A DNA stretch of 38,046 nucleotides. It comes from Candidatus Pacearchaeota archaeon (GTDB lineage: Archaea > Nanobdellota > Nanobdellia > Pacearchaeales > DTIR01). The stretch spans positions 1 through 38,046 of the forward strand of contig JACRHU010000002.1 in the NCBI GenBank assembly GCA_016211995.1, written 5' to 3'. The notes under the pieces are model-generated. The model made no database searches. It was not told the origin of the DNA and was given only the letters and a program-made list of their open reading frames with translations. Below are positions 133-19,960 of this stretch, in pieces (position 1 is the first letter of the stretch; each line of letters starts with the position of its first letter). A program made the translations under genes and the position numbers.

Positions 133-204
133 TCTTTGCTTCAAGAAAATCAAAGATTTTCTGGATCCTAAAAACCTTTGGTTTTTCTGATGTCAGGGCA
201 AAGA
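133..204 (+). repeat. GGATCC-core hairpin-module element, copy R1
   Basis: Outer stem TCTTTGC(133)/GCAAAGA(198). GAAAATC-aaa-GATTTTC (145-161). T-GGATCC-T (162-169). AAAAACC-ttt-GGTTTTT (170-186). CTGA-tg-TCAG (187-196). Confidence 0.8.
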
Positions 205-299
205 ATTATCACATTAACTTATCTATTGAATTTATTAATCTTAGTAATTAATAAATCTTTTTTAGTAAGATTTATTAATAGAATGCATATAGTAGTCTT

Positions 300-2432
300 A
301 TGAAAAATAAGGTGGTTTTAGGGGTTTTTTTAGCAGTTTTCTTGTTTAGCCTAATTTCTGCTGCTTCTGCAGAAATCTTGCTTGGGCAGCCTAGCAAGAT
401 TTATATGCTTGGAAGCAATTTTGAACAACAAGTTGATATTTTAGAATCTGACTCTGCCACTGGATTGCTGCAGCTGACTCTTGTCTGTCCTTCTCAGAGT
501 GTTGTATTTTATGCTGATACAGTGAGTGTTAGTGCTAATACTCTATTTGAGCTTAAGAAAGGACTTGTTCTTACAGATGGCATTGGAGAATGCCATGTTA
601 CCTCTAGTTTTTTAAGCGAGAGTGCAAGAACTAGTAATTTTATTGTAAGTGATAATATAAAATTAGATATCACGCTGAGCGCAAAGAGCGTGAAACCTGG
701 TGAGCAGCTTGTAATTAATGGAAATGCTATTCGTGAGGATGGAATTCCTGTGAATGGATTTGCTGAAATTTCTGTTGGAGATGTTGCGAAGCAGACTATT
801 GCAGTTGTTGATGGTTCTTTTACAATTAACTTGAATATCCCTGAGAATGCAAGGCCAGATGCTTATGACATTGAAATTCTTGTTTATGAGAAATATAAAG
901 ACACTAGAACAAATAAGGCTGTTTTCCAAGATAAGATTTATGTTACAGTTGTGCCAACAAAGTTGGAACTTGCATTAAATAATGATAGTTTTATTCCTGG
1001 CTCTATTCTTACTGTCAAGGCTTTATTGTATGATCAAGCTGGAAATGAGATAAAAGATATTGTAAGGCTAGAGATATATGATTCAAGGGGGAATAATCTT
1101 GTTCAGGAGGGAATAGAAACAAGTTTAAGTAAAAATTATCAGATTCCAAATAATGCAACAGCTGGAGATTGGAAGATTTATGTGAGTATTTCTGACTTGA
1201 GGGAAGAGAGGATAATTTACATTCCAAAATATGAATCTGCGTCTGTAGAGCTTGTAAACAACAAGCTTGTGGTAACCAATACAGGAAATGTGCCTTACAA
1301 GAAAACTTTAGAAATTAAATTTAGTAGTGGTGGAACTGAAATTGATAAAACTAAAAAAGTTGTACTTGATGTGGATGATAAACAATCTTTCTTGTTAGAA
1401 GCTCCTAATGGAACATATGATGTTTCTGTTAATGCTTTGAGTGATGGAACTGAAACTATAGAGGAAGTAAAAGAGTTCAGGTCAGTGCCATTAACAGGCA
1501 GGGCAACAGCTGTTCTTGATCTTGAAGGAAGAAAAGGTTTATTCACTCAGTATCCTTTAATCTCTTTTATTGTCTTCATTATTTTGATTATATTTATTAT
1601 CTATATATCTAGACCTAAACAAGAGCTTGATTATGTTGAATCAAAAGGAGTTATAAGCAGAGGACAAGGCACCGGATATATTGTTGCAACAAGCTCCCTT
1701 CCAATACAGGCGAGAGATGCTGGAAAAAGCGAAGATGTAATAAGAAGAATTTATGACAAGTATGTTGACAAGAGCCTAGTTGAAAAGGTAGTACAGGGTT
1801 CTATTGTAGGTAATAGACAAGAGCTTAGTGTTTTATTTGTTTCATTAAAAAATCTTTCAGAAATTCAGAAAGATGATAATTTTACAGAACTGATAAATAA
1901 GTATTTCAGAATTGTTACGAATGCTGTTTATGGCAACCGCGGAGTTGTAGGGCATGTTGCTGGAAGTGATATAATTGCATTATTTAATGCTCCTAGAACT
2001 CAGGAAAATCATCAACTTGCTGCTGTTCGCGCTGCAACAAGAATTAATGAAGAACTATCAAAATTAGAAGTAGAACACGGCCTTGGAATAAATTCAGGAC
2101 AAGCAGCTGTAGGATTAAATGCTAAAGTTTTAAGATTCATGCCTACTGCAGGCCTTTCGCTTGTTGCTCAAAAACTAAAGGAAAAATCAAGAAATGAAAT
2201 ACTTGTAAGCAAGAGTATAAATGATGTTGCAAGAGATTATTTTAAAATTCAGAGATATGGTGTAGTTGATGCTGGTGTGCATGTTATTGAAGCTTTCAAA
2301 GTTGTCGGAGCAGGCGGTGCATTCACATCAGAAGAGAAAAAAGAGTCATCATTAGCTGATATGATTTCTAGAGTCAAGCTTGAGCAAGAGAAAAAAGAGG
2401 CTGAAAAAAGATTACAGAGAGGAAGTCAATAA
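300..2432 (+). CDS. Membrane-anchored surface protein with signal peptide, ~400-aa beta-rich ectodomain, one TM helix and a cytoplasmic degenerate class III nucleotidyl-cyclase-like domain
   Basis: ATG at 300. Signal-like N-terminus MKNKVVLGVFLAVFLFSLISAASA. TM helix LISFIVFIILIIFIIYI. The C-terminal LSVLFVSLKNLS...VAGSDIIALFNAP...AAVRAATRI...GINSGQAAVG resembles a cyclase homology domain, but the first metal Asp position is Ser and no clear Asn/Arg catalytic pair is seen. Confidence 0.6.
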   Translation: MKNKVVLGVFLAVFLFSLISAASAEILLGQPSKIYMLGSNFEQQVDILESDSATGLLQLTLVCPSQSVVFYADTVSVSANTLFELKKGLVLTDGIGECHVTSSFLSESARTSNFIVSDNIKLDITLSAKSVKPGEQLVINGNAIREDGIPVNGFAEISVGDVAKQTIAVVDGSFTINLNIPENARPDAYDIEILVYEKYKDTRTNKAVFQDKIYVTVVPTKLELALNNDSFIPGSILTVKALLYDQAGNEIKDIVRLEIYDSRGNNLVQEGIETSLSKNYQIPNNATAGDWKIYVSISDLREERIIYIPKYESASVELVNNKLVVTNTGNVPYKKTLEIKFSSGGTEIDKTKKVVLDVDDKQSFLLEAPNGTYDVSVNALSDGTETIEEVKEFRSVPLTGRATAVLDLEGRKGLFTQYPLISFIVFIILIIFIIYISRPKQELDYVESKGVISRGQGTGYIVATSSLPIQARDAGKSEDVIRRIYDKYVDKSLVEKVVQGSIVGNRQELSVLFVSLKNLSEIQKDDNFTELINKYFRIVTNAVYGNRGVVGHVAGSDIIALFNAPRTQENHQLAAVRAATRINEELSKLEVEHGLGINSGQAAVGLNAKVLRFMPTAGLSLVAQKLKEKSRNEILVSKSINDVARDYFKIQRYGVVDAGVHVIEAFKVVGAGGAFTSEEKKESSLADMISRVKLEQEKKEAEKRLQRGSQ

Positions 2433-2470
2433 ATAAAGATAATTACTCGACATGATAACCAAAATTGATG

Positions 2471-2541
2471 CAAACCATCATCGGGAAAACCTTTAGGTTT
2501 TCAAGATCCTAAAATCCTGATGGATTTTATGATGCGGTTTG
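2471..2541 (+). repeat. GGATCC-core hairpin-module element, copy R2
   Basis: Outer stem CAAACC-ATCAT / ATGAT-gc-GGTTTG. GAAAACC-ttta-GGTTTTC (2485-2502). Core AGATCC (2504-2509). AAAATCC-tgat-GGATTTT (2511-2528). Confidence 0.8.
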
Positions 2542-2609
2542 GACTTTAAGGATTGCTAATAAAGAACAAGGAAAAATCAGATTAGTGATTAAATTTTTTA
2601 GGAGAAAAA

Positions 2610-3242
2610 ATGTTTTATGGAAATTATAGATTGATTATTTTTGATTTTGATGGAACTTTGGCTGATTCTAGAGAACTTTATAGAAAACAAATTTTTCTTA
2701 ATTTAAAGAAATATGGCTATAAGATAAGTAAAAAGAAATTTGAAAAGAATTTTGGTCTCCGCTTGGATAGGATGTTGCATGCACTTGGGATTAAAAAACA
2801 TAGCAAACAAATAAGAAATGCTGTGAATGGATATGTCTTACAGCATGCAAATCAGATTAAAGCACTTCCGGGGATTAATGTTGTTCGAGAGTTGAAAAGA
2901 AAAAAATACAAGATTGCACTTGTATCAAATTCAAGAAGGAATTTTATTGTTAAGGCAGTAAGACATTTTGGAATCTACAAGTATTTTGATTATGTTTTAG
3001 GAGGAGATTATTTTGCAAGCAAAGTTAAAGCTTTCAAGCATCTTTTTCATGTTTTGAAGATAAGGCCTGAACAGGCAGTTTATATTGCTGATAGAGCAGG
3101 AGATATTGTTGTTGCAAAACAAGCAGGCTGCGATATGATTTCTATTAGTAATAAGTATTCCTGGTCTCCTAGGAGTGAAATTAAAAAAGCAACTCCTGAT
3201 AAAATAATTAAAAGTTTAAAGGAGCTTGAGAAGATTTTATAA
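2610..3242 (+). CDS. HAD-superfamily hydrolase (phosphoglycolate phosphatase-like)
   Basis: AGGAG 6 nt upstream of the ATG. Motif I FDFDGTLADS, motif II LVSNS, motif III-like K...ADRAGDIVVAKQAG. Confidence 0.8.
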   Translation: MFYGNYRLIIFDFDGTLADSRELYRKQIFLNLKKYGYKISKKKFEKNFGLRLDRMLHALGIKKHSKQIRNAVNGYVLQHANQIKALPGINVVRELKRKKYKIALVSNSRRNFIVKAVRHFGIYKYFDYVLGGDYFASKVKAFKHLFHVLKIRPEQAVYIADRAGDIVVAKQAGCDMISISNKYSWSPRSEIKKATPDKIIKSLKELEKIL

Positions 3243-3788
3243 TACTGGCTCTATTTCAAGAAACGCATTTACAGCTGCATATTTAATTTCTGGGTGCTTT
3301 TTTTCTAAGTCATTAAGAAAGTTTCTAACTTGAACCCCTAATTTGTCCTTGTCTTTCTGCTTATTGATTTTTATCTTATTGAGTTTTGCATAAAGCTCAA
3401 TTTCTTTATCAAGCAAAAGATAAAGAGGCTTGATTGTATTCTTGTATTTTGGCATCAGCTGCTTTACTTCCTGCTTTTTTTTCAGTTGGTTTAGAATTAT
3501 TTGGCATGCAATATTGCCTATTGAGGTTGAAAGCAAAATTTTATCTGTTTTTGTCTTTATTTTGCTTATTTTGTAAATAGGAAGTTTTCTAAATATATGC
3601 TCAATAATAGTTGTATATCTTCCTTTATCAATAAATATCTTATTTCCTTTTCTCAGAAGATTATATTTTCTTATTGTAAATAGTATTTTTTTCTCAAAGT
3701 AATGAATAAAACAGTTTTTGCATAGTTTTCTACCATTTATCATTACAAATACTGCATTAGTTTTACATTTCTTGCACATTTTAATCAT
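3237..3788 (-). CDS. Degenerate short TtuA/Ncs6-family paralog that keeps the N-terminal zinc finger but lacks the PP-loop
   Basis: CKKCK...LCKNCFIHYFEKKILFTIRKY matches the Ncs6/TtuA N-terminal CxxC..CxxCF..FE.K motif. IKPLYLLLDKEIELYA and VRNFLNDLEKKHPEIK match C-terminal family blocks. The SGGKDS position reads STSIGN. Only 183 aa. Confidence 0.55.
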   Translation of the reverse strand: MIKMCKKCKTNAVFVMINGRKLCKNCFIHYFEKKILFTIRKYNLLRKGNKIFIDKGRYTTIIEHIFRKLPIYKISKIKTKTDKILLSTSIGNIACQIILNQLKKKQEVKQLMPKYKNTIKPLYLLLDKEIELYAKLNKIKINKQKDKDKLGVQVRNFLNDLEKKHPEIKYAAVNAFLEIEPVL

Positions 3789-3821
3789 AATATTTTTAAA
3801 GTCTATAAATTATAAAGTTTA

Positions 3822-4493
3822 ATGTCTTATTTAAAGGATGCGAAAGAGGAACTTAGAAGAGATTTTAGGGGTATCTGGACAGATTTAGGTGTATTTTCTC
3901 TGAAACTAATGGCTTTGCCTTACAAATGCAGAGTTTATGGCAAGGAAAACATTCCGAAAAGTGGAGCAATATTAGCAGCAAATCATTCTAGCTACATGGA
4001 TCCTATTTTTATGGTTTCTGGCTTAAATAGAAGGATATATTTTTTTGTAAAGCATTATATTGCTCCTACAGCTGATTTTGAGCATTCAACATATGGAAGA
4101 CTTCTTGCATCTGTTGGCCAGATTTTGCTGAAGGACGGAGAAATTGATATAAATTCTATTAAAAAGGCAAAAAGAATATTAAAATCTGATTCTAGAAATA
4201 ATAAACTTGGTATATTTTCAGAAGGAACAAGAACTTATGATGGAAAATTTGGAAAAATTCAAGAAGGAACTGCATGGCTTTCTTATATTACTCATTCACC
4301 AATTATTCCTATTGGGATAAAAGGGACATATGACTTATGGCCGAGGCATAGAAAATTGCCGAGATTGTCTGGAAAAGTAAGAATTAATGTTGGTAAACCC
4401 TTATATCCTGATTATGGAATAGAAAAAAGAAAAGCGATTAAAGATTTAACAGAAATTTTACAAAATGAGATTGAGAGGTTAATTGAAAGTTAG
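3822..4493 (+). CDS. plsC: 1-acyl-sn-glycerol-3-phosphate acyltransferase family (PlsC-like)
   Basis: HxxxxD block ANHSSYMDP, FSEGTRT block, and IPIGIKGT near the C-terminus. Confidence 0.8.
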   Translation: MSYLKDAKEELRRDFRGIWTDLGVFSLKLMALPYKCRVYGKENIPKSGAILAANHSSYMDPIFMVSGLNRRIYFFVKHYIAPTADFEHSTYGRLLASVGQILLKDGEIDINSIKKAKRILKSDSRNNKLGIFSEGTRTYDGKFGKIQEGTAWLSYITHSPIIPIGIKGTYDLWPRHRKLPRLSGKVRINVGKPLYPDYGIEKRKAIKDLTEILQNEIERLIES

Positions 4494-4506
4494 ATTTGTT
4501 AAAGAA

Positions 4507-4553
4507 CAAGTGATTGACCATCACTTGCAAAAGTCCAAAGGGGTCAGCTTTGG
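4507..4553. terminator. Two hairpins between convergent genes (bidirectional terminator candidate)
   Basis: CAAGTGAT-tgacc-ATCACTTG (4507-4527) and CCAAAG-gggtcag-CTTTGG (4535-4553) lie between the plsC stop (4493) and the minus-strand PP-loop gene stop (4581). Confidence 0.45.
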
Positions 4554-4580
4554 ATTGTTAATGGTTATTTATTAAAGATA

Positions 4581-5576
4581 TTAAATCCTTAGATTTTCAA
4601 TTTCTTCTTGGGTTGCTTTTTTTGCAAGGATTATTTTTTTATTGAAGATGATTTCGCATTCTTGCTCACAATCAGAATATCTTGCAGTAAGCTCTGCTGC
4701 TTTTTTAAGTTCTTTTTCTCTGAGTTCTCCTATCACTAATGTAACAGGACCCATTACATCTTTGGCTTCCATAATTATATCTTTCTTTGTTGCTAACATT
4801 TGAAGTTTTTTATTTTCTTGTTCATTTCTTCCTATTACTACTCTTACATTTCCTATTCTGAAATGCCTGCCTGTTTTTAAAATTTCTATATCTGTTTCTG
4901 AAATTTCTTTATTATGGTTGAAAAGATTTTGCAGCTTTCTTGCAAAATCTTTTTCGCAGAGCAGGCAGCCGCCTGCTGGTGTTGGATAGCTCAGGTTGTA
5001 TTTTTTTGCTAGCTCAAGCTGAATTTTCCTGTTTCGTCCTTTTATTGCAAGAAATTTTTCTCTATCCAGTAATCCTTTTTTCTCTGCATCTGTTTCTGGT
5101 AATAGCTTGGCTGATAATGGCCTTAGAAGTTTGCCTTCTAATTTTGTTTCTTTTTCAATTAATTTTAATGCGCGCAGCTTTTGGCTCATAGGACGCTCTT
5201 CTAAAACTTCACCTGTTACAATCACATCTGCTTTTATTTTTTTAGCTAATTTTTTTGCTTCTTCTAAAATAAAGATTCTGCAATCAATGCATGGATTCAT
5301 TCCAGAGCCATGTCCATATTTTGTGTGCTTTACAATCTCAAGATATTTTTTGAATAGCTTGCCTTTAGTGCAATCAATTATCTTTAGTTTAACTCCTTGC
5401 ATCTGCGAGAAGTTAAAAGCACAATCTGGTTTACAGCATCCGCTACCAAATGGCAATGCTAAAAAGAGAGCAATAACTTCTGCGCCCTGCTCTTGCATGA
5501 GTTTTATTGCAAGCCTGCTGTCTAATCCTCCAGAGAAGAGGCAGACTGCTTTGCATTTCTTTCTTTTTTGTTCCAT
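4581..5576 (-). CDS. PP-loop ATP pyrophosphatase, MnmA/ThiI-like predicted tRNA sulfurtransferase
   Basis: PP-loop CLFSGGLDSRLA. NPCIDCRIF...ADVIVTGEVLEERPMSQ block. Further Cys pairs (GGCLLCEK). The exact family was not resolved by eye. Confidence 0.65.
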   Translation of the reverse strand: MEQKRKKCKAVCLFSGGLDSRLAIKLMQEQGAEVIALFLALPFGSGCCKPDCAFNFSQMQGVKLKIIDCTKGKLFKKYLEIVKHTKYGHGSGMNPCIDCRIFILEEAKKLAKKIKADVIVTGEVLEERPMSQKLRALKLIEKETKLEGKLLRPLSAKLLPETDAEKKGLLDREKFLAIKGRNRKIQLELAKKYNLSYPTPAGGCLLCEKDFARKLQNLFNHNKEISETDIEILKTGRHFRIGNVRVVIGRNEQENKKLQMLATKKDIIMEAKDVMGPVTLVIGELREKELKKAAELTARYSDCEQECEIIFNKKIILAKKATQEEIENLRI

Positions 5577-5610
5577 AGAATAAGGAAAAAAAGAAAGATT
5601 TTAAATCTAT

Positions 5611-5991: not shown

Positions 5992-6038
5992 TTTAATGTT
6001 GAAGAAAAATTGCAGGAGCCGAGAAGATTATCAAGCCC

Positions 6039-6164: not shown

Positions 6165-6248
6165 AGAAATTACAGCATTTTATGCTTTAAATAATTTTCG
6201 ATTCAATGTTCTATATATTATTTTAAGTGTTTTTATCTCTATAATAAG

Positions 6249-6258: not shown

Positions 6259-6278
6259 GAATATTACTTGTTTTCTAT

Positions 6279-7226: not shown

Positions 7227-7291
7227 ATATAGATTCGGAATAAATCATTAATAATAACCAAAGCTGACCCCTTTGGTAGTTACTCAATCCT

Positions 7292-7371
7292 ATCATCAAA
7301 AAAATCTATAAGATTTTTAGGATCCCAAAAAGCTGGTTGCCTCCAGCAAAGCTGGAATGTTGAGCTTTTTG
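7292..7371 (+). repeat. GGATCC-core hairpin-module element, copy R3
   Basis: AAAAATC-tataa-GATTTTT (7300-7318). GGATCC (7320-7325). Long stem CAAAAAGCT(7326)/AGCTTTTTG(7363) enclosing GCTGG-ttgcct-CCAGC. Confidence 0.75.
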
Positions 7372-7437
7372 CGAATCGGCTTGATCCTTAATCAAGATTT
7401 CATAAGATTTAAAAGCATATTTTTTCTAGAGTTATTT

Positions 7438-12319: not shown

Positions 12320-12363
12320 GAATCGTTAATTAAATTGTTGGCAATGACAGGCCAACACAAATG

Positions 12364-12435
12364 CAAACCTGTCATCAAAAAAATCTATAAGATTTTTAGG
12401 ATCCCAGAAATCTATTATTTCTGCTAATAGGTTTG
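12364..12435 (+). repeat. GGATCC-core hairpin-module element, copy R4
   Basis: Outer stem CAAACC(12364)/GGTTTG(12430). AAAAATC-tataa-GATTTTT (12379-12397). GGATCC (12399-12404). CAGAAAT-ctatt-ATTTCTG (12405-12423). Confidence 0.8.
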
Positions 12436-12474: not shown

Positions 12475-12729
12475 ATGCCAGTATATGAATATAGATGCAA
12501 GGACTGCAATGCCAAATTCGAAGTTTTATACAGACAGGGGGATGAAGTGAAGTGCGAGTGTGGCTCAGAGAATTTAGAAAAATTAGTCTCAACTTTTGCT
12601 CTGAAAATAACCGGAACACATTTTGTAGGAGAAAAGAAAATAGAAGAATATGAGTGCGACTCATGTGAAGATAAGAAATGTGAGATGAAAAATTTAGTGG
12701 AAGGAGGAAAAAATGACAATAAATTATAG
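12475..12729 (+). CDS. FmdB-family zinc-ribbon protein
   Basis: MPVYEYRCKDCNAKFEVL ... CECGSENLEKLVS. AGGAGA SD upstream. Confidence 0.75.
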   Translation: MPVYEYRCKDCNAKFEVLYRQGDEVKCECGSENLEKLVSTFALKITGTHFVGEKKIEEYECDSCEDKKCEMKNLVEGGKNDNKL

Positions 12730-13108
12730 CAAGAAGGTAATGCAACATTTTTTTCACCCCAAACATGCTAACGAAATGAAGAATTTTAGTATCAAAGGCA
12801 GGATGGGGAATATAAAATGTGGAGATATTATGGAATTTTATCTAAAAATAAAAGATGATAAGATTATTGATGCTTCTTTTAAAACTTACGGATGTACTGC
12901 TGCAATTGCATGCTCGGATGTATTATGTGATCTTGTGATAGGCAAAAAAATAAAGGATGCCTTAAAAATAACAGCAAAAGATATTTACAATGCTCTCGGT
13001 CAATTACCCCCTCAAAAATATCACTGCTCTGTTCTTGGTATGCAAACATTTAGAAAAGCTATTAAGAATTATTCAAAAAAACAAAAGAAATATGAAAAAG
13101 TTTTTTAA
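12713..13108 (+). CDS. iscU: Fe-S cluster scaffold, IscU/NifU N-terminal type
   Basis: Three ligand cysteines in KCGDIM, YGCTAAIA and YHCSVLG. AGGAGG SD upstream. Confidence 0.85.
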   Translation: MTINYSKKVMQHFFHPKHANEMKNFSIKGRMGNIKCGDIMEFYLKIKDDKIIDASFKTYGCTAAIACSDVLCDLVIGKKIKDALKITAKDIYNALGQLPPQKYHCSVLGMQTFRKAIKNYSKKQKKYEKVF

Positions 13109-13943
13109 AAAAGAAAAATTGAATAAGCTTATAGAATTAGCCAGAACAAAAAAATATTCTGCACCAAAACTTGCTAAAAAATTTAGATGTGATAGAAAGA
13201 CTATTTTCAGAATACTTAAAGATAAAGAGATTATGCTCCCTAATCTCGGGCGATTTAAAAAAAGAATTTATTGTAATGAAAAATTCTTTAAAAAATTAAA
13301 TAAAATTTCTGCTTATTGGTTAGGATTTATTGCAGCTGATGGTGTTCTTTCTTTAAGAGATAAAAGTGTATTGATATGCTTATCAGAAAAAGATAAAAAA
13401 CATTTGTATAAATTTAAAAAAGCCATTAAAACAAATGCTAAAATTGGACTTATAAAAAGTAATAGGAGTGCCCACATAGGGATTTGTGATAAAGATCTAT
13501 TTGAATCATTAGTTGAAAGAGGCGTAACCCCAAATAAAAGTTTAAGCATAAAAAAGGTTAAATTCCCACAAAGGCTAAGTTCTCATTTTATTCGTGGTGT
13601 GTTTGATGGTGATGGAAGCATAAGCGGTTCTGATATTTCCCATATTCAGCTTATGATTGCTGGGAATAAGGAGTTCCTAGAACAATTACAAGATATATTA
13701 ATTAAGAATTGTAAGTTAAATAGAGTTAAACTTTATAGATTAACTAAAGGTAATGCCTATAAACTTCAGTATACTGGCCCACAAATATTTAAAATTTTGA
13801 AATTTTTGTATAGAAACTCTAATAAAAATATGAGATTAGATAGAAAATATACAAAATATCTAATATTCAAAAGAAAGTTTAAAGCAGATGCGTTGCATGC
13901 AGCAATTCTCGATTATGAAAACAAAAAAAGAAAGAATATCTAA
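13092..13943 (+). CDS. Free-standing double-motif LAGLIDADG homing endonuclease with an N-terminal HTH
   Basis: I prefer the ATG at 13092 (MKKFFKKEK). Motif 1 YWLGFIAADGVLS, motif 2 FIRGVFDGDGSIS. N-terminal SAPKLAKKFRCDRKTIFRIL is HTH-like. Overlaps the iscU end and the nth start. Confidence 0.8.
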   Translation: MKKFFKKEKLNKLIELARTKKYSAPKLAKKFRCDRKTIFRILKDKEIMLPNLGRFKKRIYCNEKFFKKLNKISAYWLGFIAADGVLSLRDKSVLICLSEKDKKHLYKFKKAIKTNAKIGLIKSNRSAHIGICDKDLFESLVERGVTPNKSLSIKKVKFPQRLSSHFIRGVFDGDGSISGSDISHIQLMIAGNKEFLEQLQDILIKNCKLNRVKLYRLTKGNAYKLQYTGPQIFKILKFLYRNSNKNMRLDRKYTKYLIFKRKFKADALHAAILDYENKKRKNI

Positions 13944-14574
13944 AATTTTCAAGATTCTTGGTAAATTTTATGAGAAATCTGAAAAGCCGACTATAAGAAA
14001 GACATCTGAAAAAAATGATCCCTTTAAAACTTTGATTACATGTTTGCTTTCTCTGCGTACACAGGATAAAAATACAGCAAAAACTTCTACTGCACTCTTC
14101 GCAGTTGCAGATACTCCTGACAAAATTGTTAAACTTCCTGTTAAGCAACTTGAAAAGCTGATTTACTCTTCTGGGTATTACAAAAACAAAGCAAGAACGA
14201 TCAAACATGTTTCTCAAGTGATATTAGAAGAGCATGATGGAAAAGTTCCTGAATCTGAGTATGAACTGCTTAATATAAAGGGAATAGGAAGAAAAACAGC
14301 CAATATTGTGTTGAGTTTTGCTTTTAAGAAAGAGGTCATCCCTGTTGATACCCATGTTCATGTTGTTTCAAATCGTTTAGGATGGGCTAAAACAAAAAAT
14401 GCTACTCAAACTGAGCTGGAGTTAATGAAAGTTGTTCCTCGAGCGTATTGGAAAGAGCTGAATACTATTTTTGTTTTGTTTGGCAAGGAGATATGCATAA
14501 CTCAGTCTCCTCTTTGTAGTAAATGTCCCGTTTCAAAGCTTTGTCCAAGAATTGGAGTTAAGAGGAGCAGATAG
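13915..14574 (+). CDS. nth: Endonuclease III (HhH-GPD DNA glycosylase with a 4Fe-4S cluster)
   Basis: LLSLRTQD, HhH IKGIGRKTANIVL, PVDTHV, and Cys-x6-Cys-x2-Cys-x5-Cys (CITQSPLCSKCPVSKLC). I prefer the start at the ATG at 13915. Confidence 0.85.
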   Translation: MKTKKERISKIFKILGKFYEKSEKPTIRKTSEKNDPFKTLITCLLSLRTQDKNTAKTSTALFAVADTPDKIVKLPVKQLEKLIYSSGYYKNKARTIKHVSQVILEEHDGKVPESEYELLNIKGIGRKTANIVLSFAFKKEVIPVDTHVHVVSNRLGWAKTKNATQTELELMKVVPRAYWKELNTIFVLFGKEICITQSPLCSKCPVSKLCPRIGVKRSR

Positions 14575-14622
14575 ACAAATTTAAATAAGTATATCAGCAT
14601 AGAAATATAAAGGAGGTGTAAA

Positions 14623-14847
14623 ATGTTAGAAGAAAAGACTATAAATGTCAAAGGAATTAAAGGCTGTGGCTGTGCAGACAGTCTGGCGGAGTCTTTAAAG
14701 TGTATTGGTGTAGAAAAAGTTTGCATTGATGCTAAGAGTGGAAAAGTCAATTTGAAATATGATTCCTGCAAAGTAGACTATGAAAAAATAAAGGGAAAGA
14801 TAAAAGATTCTGGTTATGAGATTGAATGTAAAAGCTGCTGTAAATAG
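14623..14847 (+). CDS. HMA-fold-like small metal-binding protein with a variant CGC motif and a C-terminal CxxCC
   Basis: AGGAGGTG SD. INVKGIKGCGCADSLAESL replaces the usual GMxCxxC. Ends in ECKSCCK. Confidence 0.55.
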   Translation: MLEEKTINVKGIKGCGCADSLAESLKCIGVEKVCIDAKSGKVNLKYDSCKVDYEKIKGKIKDSGYEIECKSCCK

Positions 14848-14972
14848 AAATTTTAGAGAGTTGAATTAAATGTTTTAATGAGAGATTAAGAAAAATTTTA
14901 TTAGATGTATCTATCAATACCGATAGAACTATAATCGATTAACTTTTTAAATGACTAAGTTAAAATATTAAA

Positions 14973-15467
14973 ATGGAAAATAGGCAAGTAGGATATATTA
15001 TAATTGGAATGGCTGTTGTGATTGGAATTATAATTTTTCTTTTTAACAGTGCATTAAAAGATATTGTAGGGACTTCATGTTCTCATGGAACAACCTGTCC
15101 AATGTATGGGGATATAAAAACTCAGACAATTATTGGGCTCGTTTTAGTAGGCATAATTGCAATAATAGGTATTGTACTTATTTTTGGTAAGGAAAAAGAA
15201 AAGATAATTGTAAGGACTAGAAAAATTAAGGATGAACTTGCAGAAAAGCTGAAAGAAGAAAAAGAAAAAAATCTTAAATTGTTGAACAAAGAGGAAAAAG
15301 CAATTTATGTAATTTTAATGAAAGAAGGAAGCATGTTCCAGGCAGATATAGTTGACAAGTCAGGATTTGGAAAAGTAAAGGTTACAAGAATTCTTGACAG
15401 GCTTGAAAGCAAGAACCTTATTGAAAGAAAAAGAAGAGGAATGAATAATATAGTGGTCATAAGATAA
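14973..15467 (+). CDS. Membrane-tethered winged-helix transcriptional regulator
   Basis: Two TM helices flank the loop CSHGTTCPMYG. The C-terminal EEKAIYVILMKEGSMFQADIVDKSGFGKVKVTRILDRLESKNLIERKRRG is a MarR/TrmB-like wHTH. Confidence 0.65.
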   Translation: MENRQVGYIIIGMAVVIGIIIFLFNSALKDIVGTSCSHGTTCPMYGDIKTQTIIGLVLVGIIAIIGIVLIFGKEKEKIIVRTRKIKDELAEKLKEEKEKNLKLLNKEEKAIYVILMKEGSMFQADIVDKSGFGKVKVTRILDRLESKNLIERKRRGMNNIVVIR

Positions 15468-15493
15468 TTAGAAGTTACTAAGGAAGTTGAACC

Positions 15494-15587
15494 ATCATAA
15501 AATCCTTATGGATTTTAGGATCCTGAAAATCTTTTGATTTTCATGATAAGAAACCTTGGTTTCTTAGGTATGAAACTAGTTTCATAC
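15494..15587 (+). repeat. GGATCC-core hairpin-module element, copy R5, with two extra hairpins
   Basis: ATCAT/ATGAT outer stem. AAAATCC-ttat-GGATTTT (15499-15516). GGATCC (15518-15523). GAAAATC-tttt-GATTTTC (15525-15542). Then AGAAACC-tt-GGTTTCT and TATGAAAC-tag-GTTTCATA. Confidence 0.8.
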
Positions 15588-15621
15588 AAATTCATTAATA
15601 GTTCTTTTTTCTGGGTTTTTT

Positions 15622-17031
15622 ATGAAAAAGTTATTTAAGATAAAAGGAATGCACTGTAATTCGTGTGAGAGATTGATTGAGATTGAATTGAAAGATAGAG
15701 TTAGCAGCATAAAAGTAAGTTATGCAAAAAATGAAGCATTGATTGATTTTGATCCTGAAAAGATAAGTGAAAAAGAAATAACTGAAAGCATTAAAAAATT
15801 AGGTTATGAAGTTATCTCACAGAATTCAAATGCTCCTGTAAAGAAAGATAGAGTCGGTTTATTTGTTTTGATAGGCGTAAGCATATTAGCCTTGTTTTTT
15901 TTATATTATCTGTTTGGCTCGAGCATTAAAATTCCTGAATTTAAGATTCCAGAGATAGGAGAAAATGTAAGTTTGGTTTTATTGTTTATTGCTGGATTGC
16001 TTGTAGGATTTCATTGTGTATCTATGTGTGGAGGCTTTGTTGTTTCATACACAGCCAAGAATGCATTAAATGGCCATAAGAGTTTGAAACAACACCTTGT
16101 TTATGGTGGTTCAAAAGTAGTTTCATATGCTATTATAGGGGGAATTTTTGGTTTAATAGGAGGAATAATTGCTTTTAGCACTAAATTGCGCGGATGGGTT
16201 GCAATTCTTGCTGGATTATTTATGATATTTTATGCATTAAGCATGTGTGGCATTGCATTTTTCAGAAGATTTCAATTTAATCCTAAATTTTTATCAAAAG
16301 TTGCTAGCAGGACACCAAAAGGACCATATGCAGGACCATTCTTTACAGGTTTGTTAAATGGATTATTCATTGCTTGCGGACCATTGCAAGCAATGTATCT
16401 TTATGCAGCAGGAACAGGAAGCTTTGTGAAAGGAGCAACAAGCTTGGCTGTTTTTGGTTTTGGAACTATTCCAGTAATGCTTGGATTCGGAAGTCTTGCT
16501 ACTGTAATAAGCCATAGCACTACAAGAAAAATTTTGAAAATTTCAGCAGTCATTGTTCTGATACTTGGATTAGTAATGTTAAACAGAGGATTAGCCTTAA
16601 CTGGAACAAATTTTGGATTAAGTTCGATAAAACCTAGCAGTAATGGAAATGTTATTAGTGGGAATATAGTAAATGGTGTTCAGGAAATAAATATGAATGT
16701 TGATGCGAGCGGTTATCATCCTAACTCTTTTGTCCTGAAAAAAGGAATTCCTGTAAAATGGAATGTGAATGTCAAAGAGCTGACAGGATGTAACAGTGAA
16801 TTAGTAGTAAATGACTACAAAATAGATGCAAGATTAAAACAAGGATTGAATGTCTTTGAATTTACTCCTGATAAAGTTGGAACAGTGAGATTCAGCTGTG
16901 GGATGGGGATGTTGCAAGGAAGTTTTATTGTTACAGAGAGTGGTGAGGCAACACAGCAACAAATTAATTCTGCTACTCCAAAATCTTCTGGAAGCTGCGG
17001 TATGGGTAGCGGATGTGGATGTGGAATGTGA
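15622..17031 (+). CDS. HMA domain, DsbD_2/TauE-like polytopic membrane domain and cupredoxin-like domain protein with a Cys/Met/Gly tail
   Basis: GMHCNSCERL; TM block GFHCVSMCGGFV; C-terminal YHPNSFVLKKGIPVKW...FSCGMGMLQG; tail GSCGMGSGCGCGM. Confidence 0.7.
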   Translation: MKKLFKIKGMHCNSCERLIEIELKDRVSSIKVSYAKNEALIDFDPEKISEKEITESIKKLGYEVISQNSNAPVKKDRVGLFVLIGVSILALFFLYYLFGSSIKIPEFKIPEIGENVSLVLLFIAGLLVGFHCVSMCGGFVVSYTAKNALNGHKSLKQHLVYGGSKVVSYAIIGGIFGLIGGIIAFSTKLRGWVAILAGLFMIFYALSMCGIAFFRRFQFNPKFLSKVASRTPKGPYAGPFFTGLLNGLFIACGPLQAMYLYAAGTGSFVKGATSLAVFGFGTIPVMLGFGSLATVISHSTTRKILKISAVIVLILGLVMLNRGLALTGTNFGLSSIKPSSNGNVISGNIVNGVQEINMNVDASGYHPNSFVLKKGIPVKWNVNVKELTGCNSELVVNDYKIDARLKQGLNVFEFTPDKVGTVRFSCGMGMLQGSFIVTESGEATQQQINSATPKSSGSCGMGSGCGCGM

Positions 17032-17075
17032 TTTAGAATAAAGAATTTTATAAAGTTGATTGGATATATTATAGA

Positions 17076-19262
17076 ATGAGAAAAGTTGATTTTAGAATAA
17101 CTGGAATGCATTGTGCTAGCTGTGCTACCTTAATAACCAATGGCTTACAAAAAGATCCTGCTGTAAAATACGCAAATGTTAATCTCACAACAGAAAAAGC
17201 AACTGTAGAGTTTGATGAGAGCAGAACAAGTGAAGCAAAAATTATTAGTATAATTCAAAGTCTAGGTTATGGTGTAGAGATTTCTTCATTGGATAAATAT
17301 AAAGAAGAGGCAAAAAGAAAGAAAAAATTAATGGATTTAAAAAAATTGGTAATTTTCAGCTTAATTTTTGCTATTCCTGCTTTTCTCATGGGAATGGTTT
17401 TTATGTGGATTGGGATAGAAATTCCTTATAAAAATTATATTCTGTTTGCATTAGCAACACCTGTACAATTTATTGTTGGTAGAAGAATATATCAAAGCGC
17501 AATTAGTGCATTAAAGCATAAAACAGCAAATATGGACAGCTTGATAGCACTTGGAACAAGCGCAGCTTATTTCTTTAGCGTTTACGTGACTTTATTTGCA
17601 CCTATGCAAGACCAATATTTTGAAGCTGCTGCAATTCTGATTACTTTTGTTATGGTTGGAAGATATCTTGAAGCTGTAGCTAAAGGAAAAACAAGTGAAG
17701 CTATAAAAAAATTAATGAACCTGTCTCCAAAAATTGCAATAGTGATAAAAAATGGAAAAGAGATTAAAATTAAAGTTGATGAGCTGATTGTAGGAGATAT
17801 TATTATTGTAAAGCCTGGAGAAAGAATTCCAGTTGATGGAATTATAATTAATGGTGAATCTGCTATTGATGAATCCATGCTTACAGGCGAAAGCATGCCT
17901 GTTGAAAAGAAAAAAGGAGATACAGTAATAGGAGCTACAATAAACAAGTATGGAAGTTTTAAGTTTAAGGCAACAAAAGTCGGAGCAAATACTACACTCT
18001 CTCAAATAATAAAGCTGATAGAGGACGCCCAAGGAAAAAAGGCTCCTATCCAAAGATTTGCAGATAAAATTTCTGCTTATTTTGTTCCTGTTGTAATAGC
18101 TATTTCTTTAATAGCTTTCTCTATATGGTATTTTGTTATAGGGATGCCTTTTTCCTTTGCTCTTATAATTGCTGTGTCTGTTCTTGTCATAGCATGCCCC
18201 TGTGCTTTAGGATTAGCTACGCCAACAGCAATAATGGTTGGAACAGGAATGGGAGCTGAAAAAGGAATTTTAATAAAAGGAGGAGATGCTTTAGAAACTG
18301 CACATAAGATAAAAGTAGTAGTTTTCGATAAAACAGGAACACTCACAAAAGGAAAACCAGAGGTTACTGATATAATTTCATTAAACAAAAAAGAAAAAGA
18401 ATTGCTAGAGATTACTGCAAGCATTGAACAGCATTCAGAGCATCCTCTTGCGCAAGCAATAGTCCAAAAAGCAAAAGATTTCAGAATAAACTTGAAAAAG
18501 ATAAGGAGCTTTAAAGCAATTCCTGGCCATGGAGTTGAAGGAATTTATGGAAAAAACAAGATTATTGTAGGAAAACCAGAATATCTTAAGAGAATACGTT
18601 CTCTAACAAAATTAGAAGAAAAAATTTCTGAGCTGGAGAATAATGGAAAAACAGTAGTTGTTACTTGTATGAATAAAAAGATTTTGGGGATAATAGCAAT
18701 AGCTGACACTCCTAGACCTGATTCAATAAGCGCTGTAAAAGTATTACAGCAAAGTGGGATATTTGTTTATATGATTACAGGAGATAATAAAAGAACAGCA
18801 AATGCAATTGCAAAACAACTTGGAATTAATCATGTACTTGCAGAAGTTTTGCCAGAAGATAAAGCAAAAAAAATAAAAGAATTGCAAAAACATGGAAAAA
18901 TTGTTGCAATGGTAGGTGATGGAATAAATGATGCTCCTGCTCTTGCGCAGGCAGATATTGGCATAGCAATTAGATCTGGCACAGATGTTGCAATGGAAAC
19001 AGGAAATATTGTTTTAATGAATAATTCAACATTAGATGTTATAAAAGCAATAAAATTAAGCAAAATGACTTTAAAAAAGATAAAACAAAATATGTTCTGG
19101 GCGTTATTTTACAATTCAATGGGAATTCCAATTGCTGCAGGATTGCTATATCCTGTTACAGGGTGGTTGCTTTCTCCAGTAATTGCAGGAGGAGCAATGG
19201 CTCTTTCATCTGTGAGTGTTGTTTTGAATACACTATTAATGAAGAGATATAAAATTAAATAA
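17076..19262 (+). CDS. copA: Copper-translocating P1B-type ATPase
   Basis: [34 protein letters not shown] and GDGINDAP. Confidence 0.92.
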
Positions 19263-19286
19263 AAATAAGATACAGAAATATTAATA

Positions 19287-19532
19287 TCACTCAACCTCTA
19301 TCCCAATTCTATAATATGCTCCTTCTTGTTGTGCATAAACAATCTTATAACCATAATTTTTTATGCTTTTAACAATATCGCCGCAAAAACTTTCATCAAT
19401 TATTGCCTCAAGAATCCTTTTTTTATTTTCTGATTGTATCTCCTCAATCTTTAAGATTATTTTTGTGAAATTCATAGGGCATACCTCTCCCCTCAAATCA
19501 AGAACTTCTTTTTCTTGTTTTTCTTCTGTCAT
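19287..19532 (-). CDS. tusA: TusA/SirA-family sulfurtransferase
   Basis: LDLRGEVCPMNF conserved Cys-Pro motif in an 81-aa protein. Confidence 0.7.
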   Translation of the reverse strand: MTEEKQEKEVLDLRGEVCPMNFTKIILKIEEIQSENKKRILEAIIDESFCGDIVKSIKNYGYKIVYAQQEGAYYRIGIEVE

Positions 19533-19647
19533 TTTAGTTGATAAGTTATGTTGCCTTCTATTTAAATTTCTGATAATATCGATATTCTTCTTTCAATTTA
19601 TGATAGTTATCTACTATCATTTTTATTCTTCTATCTTATTCTCTATT

Positions 19648-19875
19648 CTAAATCTGATACTCTGGAGCTGGAATTTTCCTGCCCCATTTTACGTTTTCCC
19701 ACGCCCTTTCATGATAATAATAAAGAACAAACCTAATAGCATGAAATGTCAAGGAGATTACACCTGTCTCTGCCCAATTGCCTGTAATAAAATATGTTAT
19801 AGCTCCGAGTATAATAATGCCTATTATACGCCATGTCAATGACTTCATAATGGATCTTTTTCTTGTGTCTCTCAT
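19648..19875 (-). CDS. DUF2061 small membrane protein
   Basis: SLTWRIIG...ITG...LTFHAIRFVLYYYHERAW pattern. Confidence 0.6.
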   Translation of the reverse strand: MRDTRKRSIMKSLTWRIIGIIILGAITYFITGNWAETGVISLTFHAIRFVLYYYHERAWENVKWGRKIPAPEYQI

Positions 19876-19883
19876 TTTATCAA

Positions 19884-19960
19884 AAAAACCTGTTGGTTTT
19901 TAGGATGCTAAAAACAGAAAACTGCATTCTTTAGATTGCAGATGAATGTTTTCTGTTTTT
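19884..19960 (+). repeat. Degenerate GGATCC-core hairpin-module element, copy R6
   Basis: AAAAACC-tgtt-GGTTTTT (19884-19901). Core GGATGC (19903-19908). 13-bp stem AAAAACAGAAAAC(19910)/GTTTTCTGTTTTT(19948). Confidence 0.65.

Follow-up and report, generated by a model that had tools for sequence, protein, structure and literature searches.

The closest analogues of the repeats described here are REP/REPIN sequences, mini-elements of the IS200/IS605 type and the Rickettsia palindromic elements (RPEs). The REP/BIME/REPIN sequences of bacteria, with their RAYT (TnpA_REP) enzymes, resemble our family in being short, multi-copy, mostly extragenic imperfect palindromes that form inverted doublets folding into larger hairpins, build mosaic arrays, produce no target-site duplication, are retained among related lineages and, presumably, are recognised in the folded single-stranded state. 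IS200/IS605 ends and PATEs (e.g. those of Haloquadratum; PMC3119063) share with it subterminal hairpins, a short conserved left-flank target, insertion without target-site duplication and an occurrence in archaea together with Y1 transposases. RPEs are likewise small palindromic repeats from the reduced, AT-rich genome of a host-dependent organism and invade both intergenic DNA and, in frame, protein-coding genes; R. felis has 728, of which 85 lie within ORFs (PMC1166351). Classical MITEs (with terminal inverted repeats, target-site duplication and DDE transposases) are similarly non-autonomous, short, multi-copy, mostly intergenic and nestable, and in a MITE census one Woesearchaeal genome was noted to carry 105 per Mb (PMC11602168).

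Here we describe six related intergenic sites, R1–R6, in 38,046 nucleotides of a Candidatus Pacearchaeota genome (GCA_016211995.1, contig JACRHU010000002.1, positions 1 to 38,046; hereafter the window). We consider it likely that they represent a miniature mobile DNA element, palindromic and non-autonomous, and propose that it is mobilised in trans as a folded single strand.

Materials and Methods

A strict descriptor (a perfect stem of ≥6 bp, RGATSC and a second perfect stem of ≥6 bp) was applied to the window and to dinucleotide shuffles of it. A covariance model (CM) was built from the 40-nt left half of the window copies. Mobility was assessed by aligning four copies of one IS200/IS605 tnpA gene (L226, L246, L247 and L215), and ends and targets were analysed in 94 distinct elements.

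Results

All six sites, which measure about 50–85 bases (Table 1), carry the architecture claimed for them in the original prediction: hairpin A, then A or T plus GGATCC, then hairpin B, with the centre reading AGATCC in R2 and GGATGC in R6, or (A)GGATSC overall. The dinucleotide-shuffle test proposed alongside that claim, run with the strict descriptor, returned seven matches in the window (R1, R2, R4 and R5, with both strands counted for R1, R4 and R5) and none in 200 shuffles; the long, imperfect hairpin B of R3 and R6 prevents a match on that side, so that these two sites pass with their left hairpin alone. Each site also folds better than its own 200 shuffles (z −3.2 to −4.5).

Table 1: Elements and outer stems in the window, with matches to the left-half CM.
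Feature	Position	Strand	Description	CM match
R1	142..192	.	51 nt; CAAG-AGAAAATC/GATTTTCT hairpin, GGATCC centre, AAAAACC/GGTTTTT hairpin, CTGATG; two-fold symmetric	137-175(+) 50.1 bits; 156-194(-) 47 bits
R1 outer stem	134..203	.	CTTTGC 134-139 pairs with GCAAAG 198-203; from sequence and MFE fold	
R2	2479..2534	.	56 nt; CATCG-GGAAAACC/GGTTTTC, A-AGATCC centre, TAAAATCC/GGATTTTA, TGATG; nearly symmetric	2477-2516(+) 54.8 bits; 2497-2536(-) 42 bits
R2 outer stem	2471..2541	.	CAAACC 2471-2476 pairs with GGTTTG 2536-2541; stem sequence same as that of R4	
R3	7294..7376	+	83 nt; left half identical to R4 (CATCAAAAAAATCTATAAGATTTTTAGGATCCCA); long hairpin B CAAAAAGCT...AGCTTTTTG with an inner hairpin within; ends CGAAT	7292-7331(+) 57 bits
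R4	12373..12428	+	56 nt; left half as R3; hairpin B CAGAAAT/ATTTCTG; ends CTAAT	55.5 bits
R4 outer stem	12364..12435		CAAACCT 12364-12370 pairs with AGGTTTG 12429-12435	
R5	15496..15545	.	50 nt; CAT-AAAATCC/GGATTTT, AGGATCCT centre, GAAAATC/GATTTTC, ATG; almost perfect two-fold dyad	15491-15530(+) 55.3 bits; 15511-15550(-) 49.4 bits
R6	19881..19965	+	85 nt; centre AGGATGC, as in the wider family; CAAAAAAACC/GGTTTTT hairpin A; long hairpin B AAAAACAGAAAAC.../...GTTTTCTGTTTTT; ends TTCAT	19876-19915(+) 54.9 bits

The six sites scored 50–57 bits against the left-half CM (E 1e-11 to 1e-13), which found no further copies in the window; since the next unrelated match reached just 13.7 bits (E 0.19), the statement that no copies lie in the last 18 kb holds. 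Scanning 710 kb of unrelated metagenome loci with the same model gave no matches at E ≤ 0.01. As meaningful patterns, both the clustering of copies in the first 20 kb and their common orientation are statistically weak. An outer stem, said to enclose the unit as a rule, is present at R1, R2 and R4 and absent from R3, R5 and R6. That of R1 is either a host or older hairpin with R1 inserted in its loop or part of a larger unit; beyond their common outer stem, R2 and R4 show about 20 nt of weaker similarity on each side.

R1, R2 and R5 are two-fold symmetric, their minus strands fitting the same CM at 47, 42 and 49 bits, and consist of two inverted half-units, whereas R3, R4 and R6 are oriented; the uniform + orientation ascribed to all six thus applies to the latter three only. 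Because the symmetric copies match the CM on the minus strand, stem types that seemed to swap position between copies are inverted half-units, and the supposed module grammar of stem types is better explained by a pseudo-palindromic unit plus nested insertions. The mosaic look of the repeats comes from one element being nested inside another.

In 596 Gb of genomes, a 30-nt pattern derived from the window left half had 24 matching stretches, against an estimated chance expectation of at most about one; every one of the 24 came from a DPANN MAG or a mislabelled DPANN-like MAG. From these stretches we derived a sharp two-hairpin consensus, AT/CATAAAAATC-loop-GATTTTTAGGATGC-CAAAAAnn-loop-nnTTTTTGWGCAT/RA (slashes mark the element ends), and the CM from the window copies scores a canonical family copy at 47.4 bits. 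The 20-nt centre GRWTTTTAGGATGCCAAAAA yielded at least 120 matches; among the matches listed nearly all were from Woesearchaeota and single MAGs held ≥10 copies (about 11–14). No family members were found in viral contigs. Short forms span 51–62 nt and long forms up to about 165 nt, with ends and centre unchanged; the shortest units (51 nt) are probably near the lower size limit of MITE-finding software. R1–R6 are a local GGATCC-centre sub-family of this multi-copy family, which is nearly confined to Woesearchaeota/Nanoarchaeota MAGs and proves common among DPANN archaea of the Woesearchaeota type. Orthologues of the window genes come from Woesearchaeota/Nanoarchaeota, and the best matches, at 61–67% amino-acid identity, are not close relatives of the window's organism. 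The idea of structured palindromic repeats of the REP/BIME/MITE type, dispersed through a DPANN genome as a family, is borne out and, in line with the prediction's own impression that no equivalent had been described for DPANN-like archaea, the literature that we searched held no prior description.

Across the family, structure is conserved rather than sequence in hairpins A and B. Hairpin A is 98.2% paired, with compensatory changes in six of eight pairs, confirming that pairing is maintained despite stem changes; in 24 of 26 copies hairpin B has a perfect stem of 7–11 bp whose apical pairs vary. Inserts of 45–64 nt leave the stem in place. Within the window, conservation of structure in place of sequence is only half the picture: hairpin pairing is kept, but the left halves are about 79% identical and R3 and R4 have 35 identical bases in common.

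A multi-copy small structured RNA gene, or a cis-regulatory RNA or riboswitch whose centre and ends bind a protein or ligand, would also account for a covarying fold that resembles a three-way junction or two tandem hairpins, for long arms (in the 155–165-nt forms) that are conserved and covary among genomes, and for strong conservation of ends and centre over many MAGs. We nevertheless judge an RNA of this kind highly unlikely: neither short nor long forms match Rfam even at E ≤ 10, copies occur in unrelated contexts without an accompanying promoter, the element is absent at orthologous loci (e.g. copper-operon upstream regions), copies are nested in one another and also lie within ORFs, and three window copies are strand-symmetric. 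That the elements are duplex sites at which a dimeric regulator or a nucleoid/partition protein reads the GGATCC palindrome and the inverted repeats beside it, defining a regulon of redox, sulphur and metal genes, is scarcely credible, even though the core is palindromic, four of the seven GGATCC sites in the window fall within elements and the neighbouring genes follow one theme (TrxR, thioredoxin-like, IscU, copper ATPase, CysK). Compensatory stem changes and a half-site spacing that varies by 45–64 nt with pairing kept fit a folded strand, not a duplex site; moreover, the family-wide centre, GGATGC, is non-palindromic and orthologous promoters are without the element.

Evidence for mobility comes from the tnpA alignment, which is drawn from genomes other than that of the window's organism (L246 and L247 derive from the same MAG) and contains precise filled and empty sites for units of 51, 53 and 54 nt without target-site duplication. 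At site 2 there is no insert in L226, and L246 has a single 51-nt element whose junction is unambiguous and free of duplication; in L247 and L215 this 51-nt element is itself interrupted at its centre by a 52-nt element. L247 and L215 also carry a 53-nt element at site 3, where L226 and L246 have none, and L215 alone has a 54-nt element at site 1. Among the 94 distinct elements, the left flank has T at −1 in 94, A at −2 in 91 and A at −4 in 69, the right flank reads RA, and flanking direct repeats are not commoner than in a shuffled-partner control. One long copy (L386) has a 10-nt flanking direct repeat. These comparisons show that units are gained as precise 51–54 nt blocks, most often immediately 3′ of (A)AWAT and with no target-site duplication, and that insertion of units into one another produces multi-hairpin mosaics.

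Apart from the copies in tnpA, two of the 94 elements lie inside a long open reading frame. A 165-nt copy inside carB is in frame and stop-free, and the resulting insert (~62 aa) has no counterpart in human CPS1 (5dot_A), demonstrating that elements can persist in frame within protein-coding genes. Such insertions might be harmless if the elements were intron-like and cut from RNA (e.g. by the archaeal splicing endonuclease): the tnpA and carB reading frames are intact around the copies, the same interrupted tnpA allele occurs in two MAGs (89% amino-acid identity) and the fold is two-fold pseudo-symmetric. Splicing is, however, most improbable, as three of five coding insertions are stop-free multiples of 3 (51, 54 and 165 nt), which selection for read-through would produce but which would be needless if the insert were spliced out; furthermore, no bulge-helix-bulge motif could be drawn by eye at the site-2 junction and the L215 allele contains an in-frame stop.

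In the window, elements appear to be tolerated in intergenic DNA only. R2–R5 lie 27–66 nt past + strand stop codons and before the TATA-like box of the next gene; at R1, R3 and R5 the downstream gene has a TATA-like box of its own, which sits after the element. R5 is found 3′ of the stop codon of a TrmB/DUF7343-type regulator, before the operator and promoter of a copper operon, with a stop-to-operator spacer of 104 nt compared with a median of 1.5 nt at 20 orthologous loci; orthologous copper-operon upstream regions carry the GAAACTAGTTTC operator only, without the element. R6, flanked by two minus-strand genes (cysK and DUF2061), is consequently antisense to both neighbours. In an independent Logan assembly, a contig start falls within R4 and a contig end within R5.

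The position of R2–R5, stems that finish in T4–T5 runs and the T-runs after hairpin B of R3 and R6 would suit an element of transcript 3′ ends, in which hairpins with U-runs and a protein-binding core end transcription or stabilise the upstream mRNA. This is very unlikely to be what the elements are, and a terminator or mRNA-stability role as defining function does not survive comparison with other genomes, where copies occur in every orientation, between divergent genes and inside ORFs. Across 26 copies, flanking genes are arranged +/+ in about six cases, −/− in six, +/− in four and −/+ in five, with the rest lacking an ORF on one side, so that the orientation of elements relative to neighbouring genes is random and about five of the 26 lie between divergent gene starts. 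R6 is antisense, other copies interrupt the tnpA and carB coding sequences, and the filled and empty sites show gain by insertion, although termination may remain a side effect. Terminators, riboswitches and operators are rejected as the identity of the elements.

Discussion

That the left flank is conserved, that duplications are lacking and that the hairpins keep their structure all suggest that a trans-acting enzyme mobilises the elements as folded single-stranded DNA. As an imperfect palindrome, each unit is predicted to fold, as a single strand, into two adjacent A/T-rich hairpins; base pairing of the hairpin feet with the AGGATSC centre and with the element termini (CAT... ...GCAT or ...ATG), all of them conserved, would bring the element's two ends beside its centre. 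A host- or IS-encoded enzyme could then recognise the folded strand and move elements in trans, the leading candidate being an HUH/Y1-type nuclease, as for IS200/IS605 and REP/RAYT. Effects on neighbouring transcripts, with hairpins and T-runs acting as terminators, would be a by-product. Ordinary MITEs do not usually show such conservation of ends and centre over many MAGs, for which a cellular function is another possible reason.

Mobilisation by a RAYT, as originally proposed, stays conjectural, because no RAYT or IS200-type (Y1) transposase occurs in the window and none was found recurrently linked to copies elsewhere. Nor did the window, or ~2 Mb of related loci, contain a RAYT gene flanked by repeats. 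We likewise found no gene family recurring beside copies in 900 kb, no long copy with family ends carrying a gene and no tnpA/tnpB partner with matching ends. Elements were found together with one tnpA only, which serves them as an insertion target and has an unrelated hairpin at its own left end. An IS200/IS605-like mechanism should not simply be assumed, since the 3–4 nt between cut site and hairpin foot is much shorter than in IS608.

The REP/BIME-like reading of the original prediction is partly correct. In contrast to REP/BIME, the DPANN family is archaeal, lacks the GTAG/CGTC tag and a repeat-flanked RAYT gene, and is built of a constant two-hairpin unit whose ends and centre are conserved and which also occurs inside ORFs. 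It differs from IS200/IS605 in the short distance from cut site to hairpin foot, in the strand symmetry of three window copies and in having ends unlike the left end of the co-resident Woesearchaeal IS. RPEs are unrelated in sequence and domain of life and measure about 100–150 nt, compared with 51 nt for the shortest DPANN units; of the 94 DPANN copies, just two were inside a long ORF, those in tnpA apart. Unlike classical MITEs, the DPANN elements lack target-site duplication and conserve internal hairpins and centre, not just terminal repeats. In one genome, a family element lies within a 215-nt MITE with 15-bp terminal inverted repeats.

Sequence and structure of the copies in the window

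All six sites of the original prediction could be read in the sequence as two hairpins around a GGATSC centre (R1–R6; refined limits in the table), and each was more stable than its own shuffles (z −3.2 to −4.5; equally stable shuffles 0 of 200). A strict descriptor, consisting of a perfect stem of ≥6 bp, RGATSC and another perfect stem of ≥6 bp with spacers of 0–2 nt, matched the window seven times and had no match in 200 dinucleotide-preserving shuffles, the control set beforehand as the refuting test. These seven matches represent R1, R2, R4 and R5, with R1, R4 and R5 each counted on both strands; in R3 and R6 the right hairpin is long and imperfect, so that they match at the left hairpin alone. 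A left-only match at position 34759 lies inside coding sequence and was rejected as a copy. GGATCC by itself is unremarkable (7 sites in the window vs 3.4 expected, 4 of the 7 within elements).

Alignment of the six copies with MAFFT gave the left-half consensus ATCATCAAAAAAATC-TTAA-GATTTTTAGGATCCTAAAAAC, and 35 identical bases are common to R3 and R4. The proposal that structure rather than sequence is conserved is therefore right as regards structure, but the left half is conserved in sequence too. A covariance model built from the 40-nt half-unit (the left part of the element) scored 50–57 bits at the six sites, and the best unrelated match in the 38 kb reached 13.7 bits (E 0.19), which bears out the absence of copies from the last 18 kb. 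Minus-strand matches to the same model at R1 (47 bits), R2 (42 bits) and R5 (49 bits) identify these three as two inverted half-units with a common palindromic centre. The reported swapping of stem types between positions is thus real and is explained by the inverted half-units, while the claim that all copies have + orientation falls away, as R1, R2 and R5 are symmetric and orientation is defined for R3, R4 and R6 only. Neither the clustering within the first 20 kb nor the orientation common to these three informative copies carries much statistical weight, and neither is compelling. All six copies are intergenic, as expected if selection otherwise acts against insertions in this gene-dense region.

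R1, R2 and R4 each lie within the loop of an outer hairpin; the outer stem GCAAACC...GGTTTG is common to R2 and R4, with weaker similarity over ~20 nt further out, so that the elements may have entered an older repeat or form part of a composite unit. The same organism was also assembled independently in Logan, and there contigs break exactly inside R4 and R5, as is typical of repeats or palindromes, so that these elements interrupt short-read assemblies. The small hairpins adjoining R3, R4 and R5 could be either terminators or what is left of other small palindromic elements. The inverted repeat before the ORF at 34667 is unrelated to this element family.

Location of elements, genes and associated features (positions are those of the window unless a locus from another genome is named)
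Feature	Location	Description
R1	142–192	two-hairpin element
R2	2479–2534	two-hairpin element
R3	7294–7376	two-hairpin element
R4	12373–12428	two-hairpin element
R5	15496–15545	two-hairpin element
R6	19881–19965	two-hairpin element
Hairpin adjoining R3	7259–7281	ACCAAAG...CTTTGGT
Hairpin adjoining R4	12336–12359	TGTTGGC...GCCAACA
Hairpin adjoining R5	15549–15566	AGAAACCTTGGTTTCT
IscU/NifU_N gene	12713–13108	
LAGLIDADG-type ORF	12990–13943	317 aa; overlaps 3′ end of IscU/NifU_N gene
DUF7343 regulator gene	14973–15467	membrane-anchored, TrmB/MarR-like
GAAACTAGTTTC-type palindrome	15570–15585	ATGAAACTAGTTTCAT; downstream of R5
HMA-DsbD_2 protein	15622–17031	
Inverted repeat	34540–34620	imperfect, ~20 bp, GATATACGGCTATGTGTAA...TTACACATAGCTATGATATAC; intergenic
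tnpA site 1	after ATGACTAAA	empty in L226, L246, L247; 54-nt element in L215
tnpA site 2	after TGCAAATAT	empty in L226; 51-nt element in L246; that element plus nested 52-nt element in L247 and L215
tnpA site 3	after AAGAGAT(AT)	empty in L226, L246; 53-nt element in L247, L215
tnpA with up to three insertions	L215 1809–2582 (minus); L246 3001–3612; L247 173–613	
carB-borne copy	L371 5464–5628	165-nt long form in CAYWNO010000014.1; 55 codons, no stop
Long-form copy	L386 2682–2839	flanking 10-nt direct repeats GAAATGTTAT
Long-form copy	L372 3542–3699 (JACRKM01)	flanking 6-nt direct repeats AGTAAT
Y1-transposase-like ORF	L360 6087–6545 (minus)	152 aa, distant; 1.4 kb from element copy

Distribution of the family

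The window itself belongs to DPANN, as had been guessed, because the orthologues of its HMA-DsbD_2 protein come from Woesearchaeota, Nanoarchaeota and Pacearchaeota MAGs (identity ≤67%). Close relatives in which empty sites could be compared were sought with a NifS metagenome scan, where the best match had 61% identity, and by exact-protein look-up, which returned a 3.2-kb Logan contig only.

The window-derived pattern ATCANAAAAWYC-N3-5-GRWTTTTAGGATSC was searched in genomes of 185,579 species (596 Gb) and matched only 24 stretches, all in DPANN MAGs or in MAGs that look mislabelled, against an estimate of at most ~1 chance match. A first genome scan with CATCN{12,28}TTTTAGGATCC had been too loose and produced chance matches only. 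The consensus of 26 copies reads (A)AT and then, from the element boundary, CATAAAAATC-loop-GATTTTTAGGATGC-CAAAAAnn-loop-nnTTTTTG(A/T)GCAT. The usual centre in the family is GGATGC, as in R6, and the GGATCC of the window is its perfectly palindromic variant. A model built from R1–R6 scores the canonical copy in locus L215 at 47.4 bits, and R1–R6 are members of this wider family.

A search with the 20-nt centre gave at least 120 matches. Among the matches listed nearly all were Woesearchaeota, and some individual MAGs, again among those listed, carried at least 10 copies, about 11–14 (JABMQF01, CAYWNO01). DPANN genomes are tiny and streamlined, yet many copies of the family are spread across many Woesearchaeal MAGs. 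Some matches in bacterial records (Legionella, Spirochaetaceae, Desulfosarcina) are chance matches without the element, and true elements in bacterial records on short contigs are probably mis-binned. True copies were seen on contigs of MAGs labelled Pseudomonadota, ‘bacterium’ or Phycisphaerae (L339, L376, L381) and in several ‘uncultured Methanosarcinales’ binchicken MAGs (e.g. L204, L205, L209). Bacterial or Methanosarcinales labels on element-bearing contigs suggest mis-binning or mislabelling; several such contigs look misassigned, and the family could act as a lineage marker for binning. No copies were found in viral contigs or in 710 kb of unrelated metagenome loci. In DPANN loci totalling 1.15 Mb the half-unit model also picked up relatives that match more weakly; in some of them hairpin A has an insert of 45–64 nt and yet keeps its stem.

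Filled and empty sites in a transposase gene

In L215 a Woesearchaeal IS200/IS605 tnpA gene is seemingly flanked by copies, which suggested that the copies were the ends of an IS200/IS605 element. Alignment with an intact tnpA (L226) and two further tnpA copies from another MAG (L246, L247) revealed them instead as insertions into the gene, and the ends of the element bear no relation to the left end, ATGACAYACTCC with hairpin CCAGCTAAAGCTGG, of the co-resident IS. At the three insertion sites (see table) the alignment demonstrates the insertion of discrete blocks of 51–54 nt without target-site duplication. The site-2 element of L246 is CACAGAAATCTAAGATTTCTGGGATGCCAAAAATCTTCGATTTTTGTGCAC, with unambiguous junctions and no duplication; the nested element sits at its centre, directly after GGGATGC, and the site-3 element has the canonical 53-nt form. 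The 51-nt and 54-nt copies are in frame and are read through in tnpA (P0002).

Nested insertion explains the multi-hairpin arrays at other loci (L140, L168, L214, L223) and the impression of a mosaic of modules. The ‘module grammar’ of the original prediction is better accounted for by the inverted half-units together with one element lying inside another, as at site 2, and such nested mosaics resemble designed regulatory modules. In GenBank the interrupted tnpA allele appears as a 146-aa transposase, which takes its start and stop codons from the inserted elements and retains the HUH motif and YYCGS region.

Anatomy of the element and its target site

Both ends were located for 94 distinct elements, whose lengths comprise a short form of 51–62 nt, intermediates and peaks near 115, 138, 155–158 and 165 nt. 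In the long forms the ends and centre are those common to all, and both hairpins are lengthened by long conserved arms, which differ between copies yet stay paired. Hairpin A is 98.2% paired, with both-sided changes in six of eight pairs, far above shuffled and slid controls; hairpin B has perfect 7–11-bp stems with varying apical pairs (including TG/CA, GG/CC, TC/GA and GCC/GGC) in 24 of 26 copies. Conservation of hairpin structure, like nesting and a multi-copy distribution limited to one lineage, is thereby demonstrated. AUC at the 5′ end is complementary to GAU in the centre, and GCAU at the 3′ end to AUGC in the centre; with these pairs formed, both ends would adjoin the centre in a single strand. 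The complementarity can be read directly from the sequence, and its functional meaning is one that we infer. Readings as C/D-box or H/ACA sRNA, K-turn, attC or bulge-helix-bulge were dropped by eye, the defining boxes or geometry being absent, and no Rfam family matched in the loci with long-form elements.

The elements have a preferred, conserved left flank, with T at −1 in 94/94 copies, A at −2 in 91/94 and A at −4 in 69/94, and the right flank is RA. Target-site duplications were absent from all three tnpA sites, and flanking direct repeats across the 94 copies did not exceed a shuffled-partner control. Two long-form copies with flanking direct repeats (L386, L372) are exceptions, the rest of the family having no such repeats. 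Three copies in L220/L221 (DATDXI01) are embedded in a larger, classical MITE of ~215 nt whose terminal inverted repeats (GTACGTATTTAGTTC...GAACTAAATACGTAC) measure 15 bp; a further 33-nt insert occurs in one of these copies.

Relation to genes

Apart from the elements the window holds ordinary chromosomal genes (thioredoxin reductase, thioredoxin-like protein, Thi4, NifS, CysE, IscU, endonuclease III, a TrmB/DUF7343-type regulator, copper ATPase, TusA, CysK, PAPS reductase and MazEF) and no tRNA genes. The LAGLIDADG-type ORF could encode a free-standing homing endonuclease or be the remnant of an intein.

A role as terminator or 3′-UTR element, one of those first proposed, is contradicted by the orientation of neighbouring genes, which is random with respect to the element: among 26 copies about six were +/+, six −/−, four +/− and five −/+, the remainder having no flanking ORF on one side, and some copies separate divergent genes or fall within ORFs. 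Both neighbours of R6 are minus-strand genes, to which it is antisense, and R1 and R3 are followed by TATA-like boxes ~25 nt ahead of start codons.

A riboswitch or leader in a 5′ UTR was considered for R5, which precedes the copper operon. Among orthologues of this operon in dozens of DPANN genomes (L121–L170), the conserved upstream feature is a palindrome, GAAACTAGTTTC, with a TATA-like box after it. This palindrome usually either overlaps the DUF7343 regulator gene at its stop codon or is no more than ~25 nt away from that codon, and it is probably the operator of that regulator. No GGATCC element was found upstream of these orthologues. From regulator stop codon to palindrome the median distance over 20 orthologous loci is 1.5 nt; in the window it is 104 nt, which places R5 within extra DNA upstream of the promoter. 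The leader reading was rejected because the copper operator and TATA-like box lie downstream of R5, the orthologues do without the element, and none of the Rfam 15 families, riboswitches included, matched in the window at gathering score or at E ≤ 10. The elements introduce hairpins and T-runs into the spaces separating genes. Once they are recognised, they need no longer be mis-annotated as riboswitches, terminators or operators.

Of the 94 copies, only two are located within long open frames. One of these is the stop-free copy in carB, so that a conserved core metabolic gene can be occupied in frame. When this CarB is aligned to human CPS1 (5dot_A), the query skips from residue 129 to residue 192 at position 914 of the chain, which marks the element-encoded peptide, HKNPTTLDYAPLRPEF..., as an insertion in a linker that adds about 55–62 residues relative to 5dot_A. 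In-frame insertion in carB and tnpA argues against removal by RNA splicing.

Comparison with known systems

We rate the family as miniature palindromic mobile DNA. With REP/BIME-REPIN systems it has in common short imperfect palindromes, many per genome and largely extragenic (six in 20 kb, all intergenic, in the window), but the GTAG/CGTC tag of REPs is absent, the ends here being CAT(A/C)A... after a flanking AT and ...GCAT. RAYT genes are single-copy Y1 genes flanked by inverted REPs; no such gene occurs in the window or recurrently beside copies in the fetched loci, and the tnpA core flanked by inverted copies in L215/L247 owes this arrangement to insertions into the gene. Like PATE-type miniatures of IS200/IS605, the elements insert on the 3′ side of a short specific target and leave no target-site duplication, but their ends are unrelated to the left end (ATGACAYACTCC...CCAGCTAAAGCTGG) of the co-resident IS. 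Classical MITEs differ in having a fixed-length target-site duplication flanking terminal inverted repeats. In-frame, stop-free insertion into conserved coding genes (carB, tnpA) resembles Rickettsia palindromic elements, a likeness of behaviour and not homology. Cassette-like organisation as in integrons is lacking, since the 2.3–5-kb intervals hold several housekeeping genes on both strands; no recombinase was recognised among the window ORFs read or scanned (27–38 kb covered incompletely), and no attC-type R′/R″ cores were noticed by eye at the six sites.

MITEs are dense in some DPANN genomes, one census giving a Woesearchaeal genome with 105 per Mb (PMC11602168). The literature searched contained no description of this family, or of REP/RAYT-like or Rickettsia-type palindromic elements, in these archaea, and in its REP/RAYT part archaea were named in reference lists only. 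To our knowledge, REP/RAYT-type systems have so far been described in bacteria, and few mobile DNA units on record would be smaller than one of 51 nt.

Proposed mobilisation

The elements pose the question of which enzyme moves a 51-nt, duplication-free, two-hairpin unit in archaea. By analogy with IS200/IS605 and REP/RAYT, a nuclease of HUH/Y1 type, or another that is structure-specific, may act in trans and mobilise them as a folded single strand. Several observations speak against a simple analogy: the cut site lies only 3–4 nt from the hairpin foot; the IS left end is unrelated; tblastn with Woesearchaeal Y1 TnpA found no Y1 gene in the window; clustering of neighbouring ORFs revealed no recurrent gene family beside copies; and no gene-carrying copy with these ends was present in the fetched loci, where 5′ and 3′ end motifs 0.3–4 kb apart yielded no convincing autonomous copy.

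More speculatively, and in our judgement rather improbably, Woesearchaeota might possess an archaeal counterpart of REPIN-RAYT, in which a persistent, possibly domesticated single-strand nuclease maintains self-folding elements of 51–165 nt. Such a nuclease would persist vertically and be HUH-type or something new, and the elements, with ends that fold onto the conserved centre, would colonise essential genes in frame.

Six of seven same-locus pairs ≤8 kb apart have the same orientation, a tally that gives a weak hint of strand bias. Across ~2.2 Mb of loci the tblastn search recovered the insertion target only, plus one distant Y1-like ORF (L360), which has an HVHV motif and carries SGKFCAS at the usual position of the IS200-type catalytic tyrosine motif.
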